27,035 nucleotides of DNA, taken from the IMG/VR virus record IMGVR_UViG_2617270961_000004; one strand, 5' to 3'. Each line of letters begins with the position of its first letter. Positions within the stretch are counted from its first letter, which is position 1. Below are positions 1 to 27,035 of this stretch, piece after piece. The DNA is from a virus. Taxonomy: Duplodnaviria; Heunggongvirae; Uroviricota; Caudoviricetes. The translations under genes and the position numbers were made by a program. Below the pieces are notes generated by a model. That model saw only the letters and a program-made list of their open reading frames with translations, did no database searches and was not told the origin of the DNA.

Positions 1-585
1 CTATTCGATAATGGGTCCTGTTGGCCATTCAATATCCGGTGCAGTTGATGTATCAACACGGTTCAGCAATACCCGATACTTTTTCCATGCTTCCAGCAAC
101 GAGATTTCTTCCTCCGTTGCAATTTCCAGATCTGCAGCATCCTGAAGCGGCGCAATATGCTCACTGGCCACCTGCATCAGGCTGTTTTTTGTTTCTTCCG
201 CCTCCCGGATCCGGAACAGTTTTTCTGCTTCCGTATCCTTCACCCAGGCTGTGCCGTTCCACTTCTGATATTCCCCTCCCGGCGATAACCAGGTAACATT
301 TTCCGGTAACGGACCGAGTTCAGAAATAAATAACGCGTCGCCGGAAGCCACGTCATAAACCGTTTTACCCCGATGATTTTCAACGAGATGCCACGATGCC
401 TCATCACTGTTGAAAACAGCCACGAAGCCTGCCGGAATATCTGGCGGTGCAATATCGATACTGTTTGCTGGCAGACCTGTATGAGGCGGAATATATGCGT
501 CACCTTCACCAATAAATTCATTAGTTCCGGCCAGCAGATTATAAATTTTTATGGTCCGTGGTTGTTCACTCATTCTGAATGCCAT
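1..585 (-). CDS. tfa: tail fiber assembly protein Tfa (194 aa)
   Basis: Complete ORF, ATG at 583-585 and stop at 1-3. Length and sequence ([24 protein letters not shown]...) match lambda Tfa as recalled. GAGG Shine-Dalgarno upstream. Start overlaps the stf stop by 1 nt. Confidence 0.9.
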
Positions 586-3365
586 TATGCAAGCCTCACA
601 ATATAGTTAAATGCGATGTTTTTGACGGTGTTTTCCGCGTTACCAGCAGCGTTAACGGTGATGGTGTGTCCATGTGAGCCAATCGCAACCGAGTGCGTAT
701 GAGCACCAATACCCACAGTATGTGCGTGTGCACCTGCGCTTGCAGCAGTACCCGATACAGAGTGCGTATGAGCGCCTGCAGAAGAAGTGTTAACACTGTA
801 TTTAGAATAATCAGATGCTCCACTTCCCGGAGCACCACTGGAACCACCTGAAACAAATGTCATCGAATGGGTATGTGCACCGGCTGAAGCAGCCGTACCG
901 CTAACACTATGGGTATGCGCACCAGTGTTATTCGTGGATTTAGTGCCGTAATCAAACGACGATGTGGTTTTCGTCCCCAAATCCGTACTGGATGCGCTGG
1001 CGCTGTGGGTGTGCGATTTAATGCCGTCCTGTTCCTGAGACAATACGGCCCGACCACTGGCGGGCTTGCCCTTAATCATCCAGCCACGCATATCAGGGAT
1101 CACGCCTGACGGATAAGCCGCTGCAAGTTTCGGGTAAGCAGATTTGTCAAAAGTCTGCCCCTGCATCAGGGCATAACCAGACGGAACGGTATCCGATGGC
1201 CACGGGATTGGTGCGCCAGGCGGATAAAACTGCTCTGATGGCGTATAGAGTGAATAAACTGTACCGTCCGTTAACCCTTCCGGCTTATTAGCAGAATATG
1301 CTGGTGACGTATGAATCGTTACGCTGGCATTACTGGTATAATCCCATTGAATATTTACACCAGTCGCATAATTTCCGATTGCAACGTAAATATCGTAAGT
1401 ATCACCAGATGTATTGACCCAGGCAAAATTTGTAAACCCTGCCGATGTGCGCTGCCATAAAGCACCAGTAATCCCCTTCGGATTACCATTACCTGCACGC
1501 AAAACAAGTTCAGATATACCTGCCTGTTGAGGTGAACCGACGTTATATCCAGCCCCACCAATCAACGTAATTGAAACAACAGAACTCGCCTGCGGCATGG
1601 TTACCGTTGCTAATTTGAACCAACCAGCACCACCGCTGAATGACATAGTTGTTGAGTTAAGCGTACCAATATCTTTCGGTGTCAGTGTTATATCCGCTGA
1701 AAGCGCCTTACCATTCACCTTACGGGCAGAAGGTACCCGACCATTCGCATTGTCATTAGCTGCTTTCACTGCTTTCGATGTCGCAGCAAGCGTTTCAGAT
1801 GCGCTGTTGGTTGCACTACTGAGCTGGACAATTCCTTTTTGTGCTGTCGTAGCGTCCTGAGCGGTATATTTCCCGTTAGCCAGGTCATACGCGGCCTTAA
1901 CGGCTTTTGGCGTTGCCGCCAGTGACTCGGAAGTGCTGTTGGTCGCACTGCTGAGCTGTACTATCCCCTTTTTCGTCGTGCTCGCATCCTCAAGCGCCAC
2001 GGCGGATGCAATATCCTCTGCCCGTTTTGCTGCTGTCTCGGCGCGCGTTGCCGCGGATTCCGCCGTACTTTTGCTCTGAGCTGCCGCCGTCGCACTACCA
2101 GCTGCCTCTGTCGCCTTCGTGGATGCCGTCGTGGCGCTGCCTTTCGCTGCTGATGCCTGTCTGGTCGCCTCATCTTTTGAAGCAGACGCAGATGATGCCG
2201 ATGACGCCGCCGAACTGGCGGACGATGCGGCAGCCGTTTTTGAGGATTCTGCGCTGGTTTCCGACGCTTTCGCGTTCGTCTCGGATGTCTTCGCTGCGGA
2301 AGCAGACCTCGCTGCTGCGCTGGCCTGTTCAGTGGCTTCGCCAGCCTTCGTTGTGGCTGTTGAAGCGGACGATGCGGCGCTTTCTGCCGATTTTCCGGCG
2401 GCGCTAGCACTGGCTGAGGCCTGCCCGGCACTTGTTGACGCGGCACTGGCAGACGACGCAGCCGCTGTTTTTGAGCCTGCCGCAGCCGAGGCGCTCTGTC
2501 CCGCTGCCGTTTCAGAAGACCTGGCGTTTGTCTCAGACGTCTTTGCCGCCTTCGCGGAATTGCCTGCCGCCGTTGCCGAGGAAGCGGCACTACTGGCGCT
2601 TGATGATGCGTTCGTTTCTGATGATTTCGCTGCCTCTTTTGAGGCCGCCGCATCCCGGGCTGAGGTGGCTGCTTCTGACGCCTTCGTGGTCGCGGCGGAT
2701 ACAGAAGTGGCTGCTGATTGTTGTGACGCTGCCGCATTCGTTTCTGACGTTTTCGCCGCAGCGGCACTGGTAGCTGCCGCGCTTTTTGAGGACTCTGCAG
2801 CGGCAGCACTTTTTGAGGCTTCACTGGCCTTTGTTGATGCCGTTCCTGCGCTGGAAGATGCTGACTGAGCCGACGACGCGGCCTGTCCGGCTGACGTGCT
2901 GGCTGCGCGTGCTGAGCCTGCAGCATCAGTCGCACGGGTTGCCGCCTCACTGGCAGATGTGCTGGCATCACTGGCTGACTTCTTTGCGGCTGCCGTGTTC
3001 TGTGCCACCACGGACGCGTTACGCGCCACCTCTTCCACCATCAGCTCAAAACGGCGCAGTGCCTCCGGACGGGCATCATCCTCCGTCATGGCACCGAGAA
3101 AATCATTCAGCGTACCGGGTCGGGAATCTTCATACACTGTGATGGTCCCGGCATGTGACGGCGGGAATCCTTCCACCAACAGAATAACGCTGTACTGACC
3201 GTACTCAACGTCCATACTGTAACGCCCGGCTTCATCCGGATTTTCTGAGGCCAGCGTGTTCACCACCACCGTGGTACTGTTACGTTTTGCTTTCAGCTGG
3301 ATTGTGCAGTTCTGTACCGGTTTTCCTGTGCCGTCTTTCAGTACACCTGAAATCTTTACTGCCAT
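585..3365 (-). CDS. stf: side tail fiber protein Stf (926 aa from ATG at 3363-3365)
   Basis: N-terminus [26 protein letters not shown]... matches lambda Stf as recalled. The track ORF starts 2 codons upstream at a GTG; the ATG at 3365 has a GGGGTG SD. Long Ala/Ser/Thr-rich repetitive middle and a C-terminal His-rich HxH repeat domain (GAHTHS motifs). Confidence 0.9.
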
Positions 3366-3376
3366 ATTCACCCCAC

Positions 3377-3403
3377 AAAAAAGCCCGCCTGAACCGGCGG
3401 GCT
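3377..3403 (-). terminator. rho-independent terminator candidate between lom and stf
   Basis: 8-bp GC-rich inverted repeat (agcccgcc / ggcgggct, 6-nt loop) followed on the minus strand by a run of T, just downstream of the lom stop. Confidence 0.6.
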
Positions 3404-3429: not shown

Positions 3430-4029
3430 TCAGAATTTATAACCAACACCCACGATGAACCCGTCAGTGCGCCAGTCACCACTGCCGGAGCCTTCATAAG
3501 CGACATCAATGGCCACGGATTCGGTCGGGTTAAACTGCACGCCAGCCCCCCACGCCAGAGACGTGTTGCTGTGGCGACCGTCATCACTTCCGGTCAGCAC
3601 ATCGTGCGTTTTCCCCTTGTTGTCAGTTACGCGGAGATAATCCCCGGAGAAAGTCGACACACGGCTGTAAGCCACGCCTGCCATCGCATACGCGCTGAAC
3701 CATTCATTCACGCGTACAGACGGCCCCGCCATCACGCTGAACCAGCGGTTACGCACGGAATCTTCATGCCAGCGGGTATCGCTGTAATGGGTCAGCTGGC
3801 GATTCTTGTCTCCTGCATAGCTGAACGACGTCACCATCCCCAGTGTGTCCGTAAACTCATAACGGTATTTCACGTTAATCCCGTTCAGATCATCACTGCC
3901 GGGAACGTTCGTCCGGGCATGAAGATACCCCGCGCTCAGCGTGGACTGATGTTCAGACGCCCATGCAGGCGCACCGGATACGGCCAGACAAATGGCTGCG
4001 GACAAAATGGCGGCATAAAGTTTACGCAT
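3430..4029 (-). CDS. lom: Lom outer-membrane protein (Ail/Lom family), 199 aa
   Basis: Signal peptide MRKLYAAILSAAICLAVSGAPAWA, beta-barrel-like alternating pattern, C-terminal ...GVGYKF. Sits between J and stf as in lambda. GAGAGGT SD. Confidence 0.9.
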   Translation of the reverse strand: MRKLYAAILSAAICLAVSGAPAWASEHQSTLSAGYLHARTNVPGSDDLNGINVKYRYEFTDTLGMVTSFSYAGDKNRQLTHYSDTRWHEDSVRNRWFSVMAGPSVRVNEWFSAYAMAGVAYSRVSTFSGDYLRVTDNKGKTHDVLTGSDDGRHSNTSLAWGAGVQFNPTESVAIDVAYEGSGSGDWRTDGFIVGVGYKF

Positions 4030-4052
4030 AATTACCTCTCGCTTTTCTGCAA

Positions 4053-4078
4053 TAAAAAAGGCGTCATTTCTGACGCCC
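4053..4078 (-). terminator. rho-independent terminator candidate downstream of J
   Basis: Perfect 7-bp stem ggcgtca/tgacgcc with a 4-nt loop, followed on the minus strand by TTTTTT; lies between the J stop (4096) and the lom start. Confidence 0.65.
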
Positions 4079-4095
4079 GTTATGGGTTATAAAAT

Positions 4096-7000
4096 TCAGC
4101 TGATACTGATACCTGCTGTGGATTTCTTCATCACCACAACCAGCAGATCGCTGATACTGGTTGTTGGTGTCCAGTTATTCGCTCCTGATGAAGATACGGT
4201 GAATGTCAGTGTCAGCGTCCCCTGTCCGGCAGGCATATCTATAACTGAGGAAAATACGCCCTGAGCATCCGTCGTGGACTGATTAAAAATCTCCTGACCA
4301 TTGCGGGTCACTCTTAACCGGCAGGTTGAATACCAGTATGACTGTTGGTTATTACTGTTGAAATTCTCATGCTTACCACCGCGGAATAACACTGGCGGTA
4401 TCATGACCTGCCGGTCAAATTTCTGATCATCACTGATTCTTACCGTGATGGTGCCACTGGCATAACTGTTCGTGCGGGGGAAAGACTTGCTGACCGTTTT
4501 GACAATATCGCCTTCAATCTGATTGGCTGACAGTTTCCCCTTAATCTGACAGTTTTCATTAATCGTGACATTGTTGAGCGTCCCTGAATTTGCATTCACA
4601 TTACCGCTGATATCCGCATTTTTAGCGGTCAGCTTTCCGTCTGGTGTCAGGGAAAATGCCGGCGGATTTCCACCGCTGGTAATGGTGGGAGCCGTCAGGC
4701 GTTTCAGGAACACGTCGTTCATGAATATCTGATCGCCCTGACCAACAAACATCGGTTTTGTGTTGCCATTCGCAGGATTAACCATCGCAATCCTGTCCGC
4801 CGCCAGCAGCACCTGACTCTGCATGCCGTCAGGGGTATTCTCAATACCGGCACCAATACCCGCGATATAAAGGCGTCCGTCCTGCATCTGCTGCAGCTTC
4901 ACAGCCCACATGCTGTTCAGGTTATTATTTGTATCAACCTGAACCTTCTGTATCTGCTGAATTGCAGCACTCTGGTCTTCCAGTTTCTTATTGACGGTCT
5001 GCGTGATTTCATTGCTGACATCCGTAATGGACGTCCTGATTTCAGCCAGGTCAGGCGCAAGCTGACCGTTATCAATCTGCGTCCACAGCTCCTGAGCCAG
5101 ATGGGTTTTCCCTATCTCGCCTTTGAAAAAATCCAGATAACCGGATGCATCATCACTCGGCTGACCAACAGCCTCCACGAATGCCGATTTGCCAACGGTG
5201 TTCACACTGCGGATATAAAAGTAATAATCATGGCCCGGTTTGATATTGATACTGGCGGCTATCCAGTACAGCGCCGTGCCAAGATAGCGTGCTGTGGTTT
5301 CAACCTGCCTGATATCCGCAATCCGCTTTTCCGAGAACCAGAACTCAAACTGTACCGTCGGATCATAAACCGCAAGATGCGGCGTGGCGGTTATCTGAAA
5401 ATAGCCCGGCGTCAGCTCAATCCGCGACGGCGCTGCCGGTGCGGCAATCCGGAACGATACCGACGCCGGATCGCCCTGCTGCCCCCACGCATTTACTGCC
5501 CGGACTGTCAGCCTGTAGTTCCCCAGCGCCAGTTGTGTGAAGCGGTAAGTGGTTTCCGTCGTCCGGGCCGTGCTGACCAGCCGCTCACTGCCGTCATCCG
5601 CTGTTACGGTCAGACGGAGCAGGAAGCTCACGCCCTTCACCACCTTCGGTGTGTCCCATCGCGCCAGCACCTGATATTCCCCGCTGTCTGCAGTGACTTC
5701 GGCGGTCAGGTGCTGCACTGCTGGCGGCGTGACACCATTCACCGTGCCGCTCTGGTCACCGTCAAAGTGCGCCCCGTTATCCACGATGGCTTCTTTTTCC
5801 GGTACATGCTGCATGGCGGTGATGGCATACGTGCCGTCGTCGTTCTCACGGATACTCACGCAGCGGAACAGGCGCTGGCGCAGCGTCGGCAGCTTCAGCC
5901 CCCACACGCTGTATTCAGCAACGCCGTCAGGAACACGGCTCACTTTCACCTTCACGCCGTCGGTGACGGACTGAACCTCCACGCTGACCGGATTGCCACT
6001 TCCGTCAACCAGGCTTATCAGCGTGGTACCGGAGGATGGCAGCGTGATTTCACGGTCGAGCGTCAGCGTCCGGGTCTGGCTGTTTACCGCCAGCACGCGC
6101 CCGCCGATGCTGATACCGGCATAGTCATCATCACAGATTTCAATGACATCGCCCGGCACATGGCGAAGCCCTTCTGCGCCCACGCTGAAGTCCACGGTCT
6201 GCGTTTCCAGCAGTTCTGTTTTAATCAGCCACAGCCCGGCGCGATGTGCCTGCCCCCGGCTGGTACAGCCAAAGGCATCCATCTTCGTGACATTACGACC
6301 GTAACGGGCAATGGCCTGCGTGTCCTCCACAAGCTCTGTCGCCGTCTCCCAGCCGTTATTCGGGTCAATCCAGTTCACCTCAACGGCATTATGGCGGTCC
6401 TTCAGGGCGCTGAAGCTGTAGCGGAACGGCGCGCCATCATCCGGCATCACCACATTACTGCGGTTATAGGTCCACACCTTATCTGATGGTCGGTCCTGCA
6501 CGAACGTCAGCGTCTGCCCGTTCCATACCGGCATACAGCGCATCGCCGAGCAGAAATCACTGAGCACATCCCACGCCTTGCGCTGTGTGGTCAGGTACGC
6601 ATTACAGGTGATGCGCGGCTCCGTGCCGCCAAAGCCGTCCGGCACTGACTGGTCGCAGTACTGGCCGATGACATACAGCGCCCATTTATCCACATCCGCC
6701 GCACCAAGACGTTTCCCCATGCCGTAGCGCGGATGGGTCAGCATATCCCACAGACACCAGGCCATGTTGTTGCTGTATGCCGGTTTAAACGTTCCGTCCC
6801 AGATACCGCTGTATTGCCGCGTCTGCGGGTTATAGTTCGACGGCACCTGCAGAATGCGCCCGCGCAGATGATAATTACGGCTCACCTGCTGGCTGCCGAA
6901 CTGCTCCGAATCCACCTGCACGCCGACCAGTGCCGTGTTCGGGTAGCCCTGTTTCACATCGATGATTTCGGTGTATGACGACCAGAGCGTTTTGTTCTGC

Positions 7001-7578
7001 AGCTGGTCTGTGGTGCTGTCCGGCGTCATCCTGCGCATCCGGATATTGAACGGGCGCGGCGGCAGGTTACCCACCACCACCGAGGCCAGATACTGCGAGG
7101 TGGTTTTGCCCTTAATGGTGATGTCTTTTTCCGTCACCCAGCCACCATTACGCTGGATCTGAACCAGCAGGCGGACTTCCGACGGATTCCTGTCCCCCTT
7201 TGAGGTGGTTTCCACCAGTGCCTGCACGCCGAAGGTAAAACGCAGTCGGTCAATGTTTGCCGACGTGATGGTCCGGGTGATCGGCGTGTCGTATTTCACT
7301 TCCGTACCCAGCACCGTCTCGGAGCCGGAGGATTCAAATCCCTCCGGCGGTGTCTGCTCCTGCTCACCGGCCCGGAACACCACCGTGACGCCGGAGATAT
7401 TGGTATTCCCCTCACTGTCCAGCACTGGCGTACTGTTCAGCAGCACGCTTTTTAATCCATCCACCGGACCTTCAACCGGCCCTTCGCTGATGGCATCGAT
7501 CACACTCAGCAACTGCGTGGACTTCAGGTTGTCCTTCGCTTCGCGCGGAGTATGCCCCTTACTGCTGCCTTTACCCAT
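4096..7578 (-). CDS. J: tail tip / host specificity protein J (1160 aa)
   Basis: N-terminus [45 protein letters not shown]... and overall length match lambda J as recalled. The C-terminal ~150-200 aa diverge from my recollection of lambda J. Confidence 0.95.
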
Positions 7579-23275: not shown

Positions 23276-23509
23276 ATGTCAACGAAGAACAGAACCCGCA
23301 GAACAACAACCCGCAACATCCGCTTTCCTAACCCAATGATTGAACAAATTAACATCGCTCTTGATCAAAAAGGGTCCGGGAATTTCTCAGCCTGGGTCAT
23401 TGAAGCCTGCCGCCGGAGACTGTGCTCAGAAAAAAGAGTTTCTCCTGAAGCAAACAAAGAAAAGAGTGACATTACTGAATTGCTCAGAAAACAGATCAGA
23501 CCAGATTGA
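23276..23509 (+). CDS. small basic putative ribbon-helix-helix (Arc/CopG-like) DNA-binding protein, 77 aa
   Basis: AT-rich ORF on the strand opposite the phage late genes. Basic N-terminus (MSTKNRTRRTTTRN), then a beta-strand-like IRFPNPMIEQINIAL and helix SAWVIEACRRRL resembling the RHH fold. Weak SD; family assignment is inference. Confidence 0.5.
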   Translation: MSTKNRTRRTTTRNIRFPNPMIEQINIALDQKGSGNFSAWVIEACRRRLCSEKRVSPEANKEKSDITELLRKQIRPD

Positions 23510-23565
23510 AGCAATTTAGATAATCGTGCAGACTACACCCCTCATATCACATGGAAGGTACTACA

Positions 23566-23976
23566 ATGGCTCAGGTTGCCATTTTTAAACAAATATTCGA
23601 TAAAGTGCGAAATAATTTAAACTATCACTGGTTTTATTCTGAACTAAAACGTCACAATGTCTCACATTACATTTACTATTTAGCCACAGAGAATATTCAT
23701 CTTGTTCTTGAAAACGATAATACGGTTTTAATAAAAGGACAGGGTAAGGTTGTAAATGTAAGATTTTCAAAAAATAAATGCCTTATAGAAGCCACCTTAA
23801 AGGGATTCAAATCAGGAGAGTTATCATTTTACGAATACAGGAAAAATCTTGCTACAGCAGGGGTTTTCAGATGGATTACAAATATCCACGAAAACAAAAG
23901 GTATTACTATACCTTTGATAATTCATTACTCTTTACTGAGAACATTCAGAACACTACACAAATATTTCCGCACTAA
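23566..23976 (+). CDS. hypothetical protein, 136 aa; tentatively DUF1398 / YbcV-like prophage protein
   Basis: AT-rich ORF with a GGAAGG SD 7 nt upstream of the ATG at 23566; the track ORF starts 5 codons earlier at an ATG with no SD. No signal peptide or transmembrane segment. The length equals that recalled for the E. coli DLP12 YbcV protein, which lies next to lysis genes in that prophage; the identity is unverified. Confidence 0.55.
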
Positions 23977-24463: not shown

Positions 24464-24931
24464 TCATCGAAGGCATTGCGTCCTGATGTATTCCTGAAGC
24501 GTTCTCAGTGCTGTTTGGTCGCGGATAATTCCGTCCCGGATACCGAGAACGTTTCGTCCAGCAACTGGAGAGAGTTCGACGGTGGCATCATTGCCCATGC
24601 CGGAGGCGCTGGAGGTTTCGACTGAGGATGGCACAGGGCATTTTCCTTTGACGAGCACCCGACCACCATTATCAAGCTTGCGCCGAAGAGCATCATTTTC
24701 AGCTTTCGCATCAGCTAACTCCTTCGTGTATTTATCATCGAGTGCATCAGCATCACGCTGGCGCTGCTGCATGTCAGTAATGGTGGCGTTCGCCTTCTCC
24801 AGTTCACTGGCCTTGTTATCGCGCTGTTCTTTGTAGGCGATTGCATTATCACGGTAATGATTAACAGCCCATGACAGGCAGACGATGATGCAGATAACCA
24901 GAGCGGAGATAATCGCGGTTACCCTGCTCAT
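24464..24931 (-). CDS. Rz: spanin inner-membrane subunit Rz (i-spanin), 155 aa
   Basis: [38 protein letters not shown]...: N-terminal transmembrane helix then a coiled-coil periplasmic domain. ATG at 24929-24931 overlaps the R stop as ATGA; the track ORF starts 4 codons upstream at a GTG. Confidence 0.85.
24505..24711 (-). CDS. Rz1: spanin outer-membrane lipoprotein subunit Rz1 (o-spanin), 68 aa, embedded in Rz in the +1 frame
   Basis: [21 protein letters not shown]...: signal peptide plus lipobox (VVGC), Pro-rich mature part ([13 protein letters not shown]); AAGGAG SD 7 nt upstream. Fully nested inside Rz as in lambda. Confidence 0.75.
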
Positions 24932-25425
24932 TGTTGCCCCCACAAACAGACCTCACGCTCAATCTCACGACGAGTCATCAGGCCTTTCCATTGCTTACCG
25001 CCAGCGTATGCCCAGCGACGTAGCTGGTCACATGCGCCCTTGATATCGCCCTGGTTTATTTTGCGAAGAAGAGTAGATGTTCTGAAATTGCCTGCGCCCA
25101 CGTTATAGACGAACGAGTAAAGAGCGCCGCGCGTTGTTTCCGGTATATCGACTTTGATGTACGGGTTAATTTGTCTGGCTACCGTGGCAAGGTCTTTATT
25201 CAGGAGGGCTTTGCATTCTGCTTCGGTATACGTTTTACCGGGAATGATGTCTTTTCCTGTATGCCCGTGACATACAGTCCATACGCCAACGATATCTTTG
25301 TATGGTATGTAGCTGACACCTTCCAGACCATCGTTACCACTTGGGCCAGTGATTAACACTGATGCTATAGCAATTGCTCCGCCACCAATAGCAGCAGCAA
25401 CGGCTTTTCGTAATGATGGAGGCAT
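24928..25425 (-). CDS. R: SAR endolysin (phage-21 R-type lysozyme, T4-lysozyme-like GH24), 165 aa
   Basis: N-terminal signal-anchor-release segment ([20 protein letters not shown]) followed by the lysozyme catalytic region ([23 protein letters not shown]). Length and sequence match phage 21 R as recalled; this is not the lambda R transglycosylase. Confidence 0.9.
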
Positions 25426-25640
25426 TATTCACCTCTCGCAGCCTTGCGCTTATCTTCTTTAATCTTGAAATAAAGGTTTGTCAGGTACGTCAGCAGGCCA
25501 AATACCAAGCTACCCAGCACACCTATTGCTGCCCACTGTGAGGGCGTGACTTTATCGAGCAGCTGTAAAAACCAGTAGCCAGCACTGCCTGCGGAGGTGC
25601 CGTAGGCAATGCCCGTTGTTAACTTATCCATGGATTTCAT
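25425..25640 (-). CDS. S: pinholin S21-type (class II holin), 71 aa, dual-start motif
   Basis: [28 protein letters not shown]...[23 protein letters not shown]...: two transmembrane domains, Met1-Lys-Ser-Met4 dual start (antiholin/holin), charged C-terminus. GGAGGTGAGG SD. Stop overlaps the R start by 1 nt. Confidence 0.9.
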
Positions 25641-25827: not shown

Positions 25828-26568
25828 TTACATCATGTCTTTTTCTAAAAAAAATCTTGATGAATATTGATGGGGAGGAACACCAAAATACCTTCTGAAA
25901 ACACTTACAAAATATGACGTGTTTTCATAACCGCATATCTCAGCAACTTTTCCAACAGAATATAAATTGTAGCTTAATAACCTTTCCGCCATCACCATTC
26001 GCTCTTCAAGAATTAACTTACTAAATGATAAGCCTTCGTGCTTTAATTTTCTTTTTAACAGACTTTCACTCAGATACAGTCTTGAAGATATATCACAAAG
26101 TCTCCATGCTGCAGATATATCCGTGTGAACAATAGCCTTAACTTTACTTCCTAAACTATTAAGACATCCAAATAAAAAACTTTGCACTATTTTCTCTGAA
26201 GATAAGATAGCAAGACATGCAAGTGATATTTGATTTCTAACAAAATCCACAGTTCTGCCATCACAATTCAAGCATGCAATCAAGTTCTTTAACAATGAAA
26301 AATCTTCACATTCCACCATCACGTATGCCGGATAAAACCTTCTTACAGAAAAAGGTGAGAGTGTGTTGCTTTTAAAGAAATCATTAACTGTTTTCTCTTC
26401 AACATCTACGATCATTACATGATCTATATTTGATGAAAAAAAATCTTTTAAATTGTAATCAATGAGAACAGCACTTCCTTTTTTAAACAAAATATCTTCT
26501 TTACCAATTCGGACATCAAACGAGTTCAACACCAAAATGATAGAACATATGTATGGCATATTATCCAC
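25828..26568 (-). CDS. AraC/XylS-family transcriptional regulator (GadX/YdeO/AppY-like subfamily), 246 aa
   Basis: C-terminal AraC-type HTH (LYLSESLLKRKLKHEGLSFSKLILEERM...VGKVAEICGYENTSYFVSVFRRYFGVPPHQY). Strongly AT-rich compared with the flanking phage genes. GGTGG SD. Subfamily assignment is from recalled similarity to E. coli YdeO. Confidence 0.85.
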   Translation of the reverse strand: MDNMPYICSIILVLNSFDVRIGKEDILFKKGSAVLIDYNLKDFFSSNIDHVMIVDVEEKTVNDFFKSNTLSPFSVRRFYPAYVMVECEDFSLLKNLIACLNCDGRTVDFVRNQISLACLAILSSEKIVQSFLFGCLNSLGSKVKAIVHTDISAAWRLCDISSRLYLSESLLKRKLKHEGLSFSKLILEERMVMAERLLSYNLYSVGKVAEICGYENTSYFVSVFRRYFGVPPHQYSSRFFLEKDMM

Positions 26569-26780: not shown

Positions 26781-27035
26781 GGTAATGACTCCAACTTATT
26801 GATAGTGTTTTATGTTCAGATAATGCCCGATGACTTTGTCATGCAGCTCCACCGATTTTGAGAACGACAGCGACTTCCGTCCCAGCCGTGCCAGGTGCTG
26901 CCTCAGATTCAGGTTATGCCGCTCAATTCGCTGCGTATATCGCTTGCTGATTACGTGCAGCTTTCCCTTCAGGCGGGATTCATACAGCGGCCAGCCATCC
27001 GTCATCCATATCACCACGTCAAAGGGTGACAGCAG
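26781..27035 (-). mobile_element. IS1 insertion sequence, right-end 255 bp (truncated by window edge)
   Basis: Terminal inverted repeat ggtaatgactccaacttattgatagtg beginning at 26781, followed by sequence matching the insB 3' end of IS1 as recalled. The rest of the element lies outside the window. Confidence 0.9.
26796..27035 (-). CDS. insB: IS1 transposase InsB, C-terminal part (partial; 5' end outside window)
   Basis: Translation ...[76 protein letters not shown] matches the InsB C-terminus; the reading frame stays open to the window end. Confidence 0.85.

Follow-up and report, generated by a model that had tools for sequence, protein, structure and literature searches.

Which outer-membrane protein serves as the receptor for the tail tip encoded by this prophage, and does the departure of its J protein from that of phage lambda go along with a departure from the lambda receptor LamB? 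The window, i.e. the whole stretch of 27,035 nucleotides analysed here (IMG/VR record IMGVR_UViG_2617270961_000004), spans the late arm of a lambda-like prophage, whose genes follow one another on the minus strand in the order Nu1, A, W, B, C/Nu3, D, E, FI, FII, Z, U, V, G/T, H, M, L, K, I, J, lom, stf and tfa. The tail genes around J fit the lambda succession H-M-L-K-I-J-lom-stf-tfa, and the order of the open reading frames corresponds to that annotated for phage PhiR30_1. Along J, Pfam profiles were assigned to FNIII-A_GpJ (residues 86–207), Phage-tail_3 (330–496), Ig_J (610–714), Ig_J_second (716–818), Phage_Tail_Tip (872–1000) and Ig_GpJ_C (1036–1160), all six far above their cut-offs. This order of a hub, two FNIII/Ig domains, a tail-tip fibre and an Ig-like receptor-binding domain (RBD) identifies the protein as a lambda-type tip attachment protein. 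The terminal profile, PF12421, was matched with E = 4.9e-36 and 124 bits compared to a cut-off of 26.2; the family is named ‘Tip attachment protein J, C-terminal receptor binding domain’. On the basis of this match, the RBD of the window is an allele of the Ig-like domain of lambda and not an unrelated module. The features discussed are compiled in Table 1. An open reading frame of 60 residues on the plus strand opposite the 3′ end of J (4082–4264) was discounted as a side product of listing all six frames.

Table 1. Position of features at the 3′ end of J and in its neighbourhood, in window coordinates.
Feature	Position	Strand	Description
J, tip attachment / central tail fibre protein	4096..7578	−	intact 1160-aa ORF, phage-21-type overall; ORF list and translation
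Second divergent block, 21-type alpha-helical shaft	4742..5160	−	J residues ~806–925, 28 residues longer than in lambda
Lambda-like island	4562..4741	−	~90% DNA identity to lambda; encodes the lower central straight fibre
Lambda-divergent DNA cassette	4096..4561	−	J residues ~1006–1160 and stop codon
A8-identical segment	4099..4602	−	J residues 993–1160: predicted OmpC-binding RBD and last turns of the beta-prism fibre
PF12421 Ig_GpJ_C, Ig-like C-terminal RBD	4099..4473	−	J residues 1036–1160; hmmscan
Terminator-like hairpin and T-run	4059..4078	−	18 nt downstream of the J stop codon; consensus scan
lom, Ail/Lom outer-membrane protein	3430..4029	−	199 aa; Pfam Ail_Lom, E = 2.9e-121
stf, side tail fibre	585–3371	−	928 aa
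tfa	1–585	−	

The J protein of the window is 84% identical to that of lambda (1132 residues; J02459, P03749), but the identity is very unevenly spread along the chain. Residues 1–805 are nearly invariant (792/805, 98.4%), residues 806–925 retain 43 of 120 positions (36%) and contain a 28-residue insertion, residues 926–1007 return to 87% (71/82), and the last 153 residues (1008–1160) fall to 67 identities in 158 aligned columns (42%), with three indels of four residues fewer, five more and one fewer relative to lambda. A tblastn search with the last 154 residues yielded a similar value (42.7%). The C-terminal divergence described in the earlier note is therefore real and far beyond chance, and the peptide quoted there, which ends in FDRQVM, was located at J residues 1013–1059 (window 4542–4402, minus strand). 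High identity to the LamB-binding domain of lambda, which would speak against a changed receptor, was looked for in the same alignment and the 42% given above was found; the window J does not belong to the LamB-binding allele, which in lambda J spans residues ~980–1132 including the receptor-contacting loops. The boundaries drawn in the earlier note have to be shifted. A lambda-like stretch of about 950 residues holds for residues 1–805 but not for the 36% block that follows, and the C-terminal divergence starts near residue 1006–1008 rather than at 960.

The same mosaic is visible in the DNA. The window is lambda-like from ~8100 down to ~5160, diverges over the shaft block, resembles lambda again in the island, and from ~4561 diverges once more, across the stop codon of J, the spacer behind it and the greater part of lom, as far as ~3511. 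In a sliding 60-nt comparison the matches drop from 51–55 to 24–37 per 60 at ~4561, and the G+C content of the 3′ cassette of J amounts to 46.8% compared to 59.0% in the lambda-like 5′ 2.4 kb of the gene. The previously delimited interval, 4096–4700, accordingly contains the divergent cassette but overshoots it by about 140 nt into the island, which probably constitutes the upstream recombination flank of the receptor-binding cassette. The second divergent block corresponds to the alpha-helical shaft of lambda J, helices 809–861 (PMC11101478), and its insertion comprises exactly four heptads. A J of the same length and with the same longer shaft is found in phage 21 (OL657228, central tail fiber; 1160 residues), which aligns with that of the window without gaps at 95% identity and nearly identically in the shaft block; by length and shaft the window J is thus of the phage-21 type. 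The last 154 residues of the phage 21 protein are, however, only 81% identical, and the differences cluster in the Ig-like domain. Conversely, the J protein of PhiR30_1 (1132 residues) has the RBD of the window but not the longer 21-type shaft, which indicates that shaft type and receptor-binding allele assort independently.

The decisive evidence for the receptor came from the Protein Data Bank. A phmmer search with the last 201 residues of J revealed 200 identities to chain 9wca_J, designated ‘A8 gpJ 713’, which is also present in entry 9wcb. The only mismatch, N992, faces a lambda-derived serine (S964) at the junction of a chimera; with a longer query the chain was found to resemble lambda as far as lambda S964 and to agree with the window in all 168 positions thereafter (chain residues 261 to 428). 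The published supplementary DNA termed ‘GpJ A8’ (PMC11338833), despite OCR damage of the text, matches the 3′ end of the window J in 485 of 501 bases. Judged by sequence identity, the window J carries the A8-type OmpC-binding receptor-binding allele. Entry 9wca is entitled ‘Closed state of A8 gpJ 713 central tail fiber’ and 9wcb ‘Open state of A8 gpJ 713 central tail fiber with OmpC G17 from E. coli EDL933’ (both released on 2026-01-28), and a search with the K-12 OmpC sequence established that the latter also holds three chains named ‘Outer membrane porin C’. From the Foldseek run, entry titles, dates and percent identities were used and TM-scores disregarded. An AlphaFold2 model calculated from the single sequence of the last 201 residues (mean pLDDT 51) was too poor to serve as evidence for the fold.

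In the A8 gpJ, residues 1–964 of lambda gpJ are followed by the C-terminal part of a natural gpJ, which Brödel et al. (Nature 2024, PMC11338833) had amplified from an E. coli strain, and the engineered junction falls within the stretch corresponding to the lambda-like island. A lamB deletion strain served for the screening of the gpJ chimeras, and MG1655 lacking both lamB and ompC and supplied with 23 plasmid-borne OmpC variants for the subsequent tests (PMC11338833). A8 delivered DNA into the double deletion strain only by way of plasmid-borne OmpC variants and reached ~90% of the cells at an MOI of ~20 with the OmpC of MG1655 and of EDL933 alike (PMC11338833). A8, a second chimera termed 1A2 or both worked on 21 of the 23 variants (PMC11338833); recognition depends on the OmpC allele, so that OmpC use alone does not predict the host strains. 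The experiments of others with the identical domain sequence hence document OmpC-dependent and LamB-independent entry (PMC11338833). We conclude, with a probability of roughly 0.9, that the 3′ end of J encodes a natural allele of the lambda-type Ig-like RBD which recognizes the trimeric porin OmpC and not LamB. While the earlier note rightly suspected a receptor other than LamB, as the 168 identical residues of an OmpC-directed segment suggest, it left that receptor unnamed; the evidence points to OmpC, which, by identity of the domain, is almost certainly the receptor of the window J.

The functional and structural data on OmpC refer to a chimera with the lambda shaft and not to the native shaft with its 28 additional residues; OmpC use of this prophage in the manner of A8 would thus follow from the identical domain. 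A native J might, in addition to or instead of OmpC, use a different protein of the outer membrane, for instance OmpF or a further porin, the chimera data being only partly predictive. The shaft, as transmitter of the binding signal, indeed differs from that of the chimera, and lambda J can acquire dual LamB/OmpF use by point mutations (PMC11101478; PMC13190303). We nevertheless consider this option improbable, as the transplanted RBD alone determined the specificity (PMC11338833), and the natural occurrence of the same RBD on both shaft types argues for shaft and RBD as functionally independent modules. OmpC use by the native protein is made likelier by the same RBD on the lambda-length J of PhiR30_1 and by phage Chlobot, isolated from puddle water, whose J is identical in 1154 of 1160 residues (99.5%); the native architecture of 21-type shaft and A8-type RBD therefore works in a viable phage. 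A literature search for the receptor of phage 21 or of natural phages with the A8-type allele (the PhiR panel, Chlobot, Turner and Stx1a phages) retrieved nothing usable, and adsorption or plating data for a natural phage with exactly this J were not found in the literature.

It is also quite improbable that the prophage is defective and its RBD devoid of a current function. Near its right end (26796–27017) the window contains a fragment of an IS1 transposase, and inducibility is not readable from the window alone. However, J is intact over its 1160 residues, the open reading frames run uninterrupted in lambda order from Nu1/A to stf/tfa as in PhiR30_1, and more than 90% of the first 25 kb aligns at ~96–97% identity with phages that have been isolated (Kati, Chlobot, PhiR30_1). 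An intact gene set of this kind makes a dead prophage unlikely. Finally, continued use of LamB, with the sequence differences reflecting neutral drift or adaptation to LamB variants, would be compatible with the common Pfam family and the conserved scaffold motifs GDIVK, FDRQ, DMPAG and the C-terminal KK..GIS, but it is highly improbable in view of the 42% identity to the LamB binder with its three indels, the function of the identical A8 sequence in lamB-deleted strains with an efficiency that varies with the supplied OmpC (PMC11338833), and the solved open-state complex with OmpC (9wcb).

A mechanism for OmpC recognition by the window J can be outlined in analogy to lambda. The C-terminal part of lambda J consists of two FNIII domains, an alpha-helical shaft, a beta-sheet prism fibre and the Ig-like RBD (Ge and Wang, Nat Commun 2024, PMC11101478), and four loops at the bottom of the RBD enter the extracellular lumen of the LamB trimer (PMC11101478). 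Upon LamB binding, the bottoms of the three RBDs spread and the prism twists (PMC11101478); the shaft helices then flip and partly refold, the FNIII strings detach and the tail tip opens (PMC11101478). In the window J, three RBD copies would be placed at the tip of a trimeric central tail fibre, and their bottom loops are expected to enter the extracellular mouth of the OmpC trimer. Binding might spread the bottom of the RBDs and thereby twist the beta-prism fibre, and the twist might in turn flip the alpha-helical shaft and open the tail tip for DNA ejection. A lambda-type switch triggered by OmpC is the best-supported mechanism because closed and open-with-OmpC entries exist for A8 which match those states.

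At the protein level the RBD recurs with 98–100% identity in many Stx1a- and Stx2a-converting phages, in phage Turner and in PhiR30_1, while other groups of RBD alleles are ~78%, ~60% and ~45% identical to it. The 505-nt 3′ end of J had a match in 2,725 of 5,426 complete E. coli genomes; the best match was at least 99% identical in 323 records and 95–99% identical in 1,184, i.e. ~1,500 records at 95% DNA identity or more. We propose that the RBD allele is exchanged among lambdoid phages as a cassette of about 460 nt; its upstream flank would be the conserved sequence encoding the fibre, and its downstream flank the last J codons, which are also conserved, or lom. The closest phage overall, Kati (97.4% identity over 94% of the first 25 kb of the window), matches the RBD and lom segment (3430–4560) only from the last J codons into lom; Kati, PhiR34_1 and mEp460 have the lom allele in common with the window, but not the RBD. 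A co-adapted module of the RBD allele and the adjacent non-lambda lom was considered and rejected. The lom allele (~95% DNA identity) adjoins other J C-termini in Kati, PhiR34_1, PhiR42_1 and mEp460, and phage 21 has no lom at all, which implies that RBD and lom do not form a fixed module.

Downstream of J, the non-lambda DNA continues from the receptor-binding cassette into lom without a break (3511–4095). The window Lom is 46% identical to that of lambda; most of its gene is of non-lambda type, and the DNA becomes lambda-like again below ~3510. A terminator is annotated in phage 21 at the site equivalent to the hairpin behind J, and a second terminator-like, G+C-rich hairpin with a T-run directly follows lom (3382–3403, minus strand). 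The side tail fibre Stf has a long low-complexity middle part rich in alanine, serine and threonine and a histidine-rich C-terminus of the GAHTHS type, the C-terminus being 67% identical to lambda orf-314, the distal part of lambda Stf. Lambda Stf binds OmpC. It is conceivable, although doubtful, that the side fibres of this prophage also use OmpC, such that one porin would serve reversible and irreversible adsorption, and that the additional shaft length adjusts how far the tip reaches or how force is passed on in the opening switch. The host range depends, in addition, on the side tail fibres Stf/Tfa and on the O-antigen. Three records of the PhiR panel with the A8-type allele (PV340557 PhiR29_2, PV340558 PhiR30_1 and PV340577 PhiR70_1) list E. 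coli C and not K-12 as host, which contrasts with the recognition of MG1655 OmpC by A8; several PhiR phages with other alleles list K-12 MG1655 or ECOR13.

Towards the right end, the window contains two small open reading frames on the plus strand (23276–23976) with the domains DUF3950 (77 residues) and DUF1398 (141 residues), located between Nu1 and the lysis genes in a stretch of 38–40% G+C. Beyond the S-R-Rz-like lysis frames (~24464–25640), an AraC-family regulator of 246 residues (HTH_18 / HTH_AraC; 25828–26568, minus strand) resides in a low-G+C stretch (~36%) and resembles a moron-type cargo gene. The IS1 fragment mentioned above is likewise encoded on the minus strand and covers profile positions 59–131 of DDE_Tnp_IS1.

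The RBD of the window is already known, as it represents a widespread allele which was functionally characterized and structurally solved by others. The domain has been exploited for engineered DNA delivery and its structure determined with the receptor, and the present assignment therefore adds no new biology. It permits, however, a confident receptor call for this prophage, OmpC and not LamB, which by identity would extend to the many E. coli prophages and Stx1a/Stx2a-converting phages with the same allele and may be used for predicting which strains can be lysogenised. Such a prediction is helped by the reliable expression of OmpC in the gut, where lamB expression is selected against (PMC11338833).

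Among the known J tips, the A8 chimera is the closest relative in its RBD, but it is an engineered protein with a lambda-length shaft, whereas the window encodes a natural, full-length J whose shaft is of the 21 type and exceeds that of lambda by 28 residues. The 1A2 chimera likewise turns lambda to OmpC by a natural gpJ C-terminus (PMC11338833). It represents another allele than that of the window, its supplementary DNA giving 317 matches and 155 mismatches in the alignment to the window, and a blastn search with this OCR-damaged and possibly recoded DNA found no match among phages. Functionally, 1A2 is efficient on the OmpC of EDL933 but not on that of MG1655, whereas A8 works on both (PMC11338833). 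The classical OmpC-using lambdoid tip is that of phage 434, whose host range (h434), as summarized where it is cited in PMC11101478, is transferred by a J swap that moves lambda from LamB to OmpC. Lambda J itself (P03749; PDB 8xcj/8xck) belongs to the same PF12421 family and shares with the window J the fibre layout of FNIII domains, helical shaft, beta-prism and RBD, and probably the same closed-to-open trigger; the two differ in the receptor, which in lambda is LamB.
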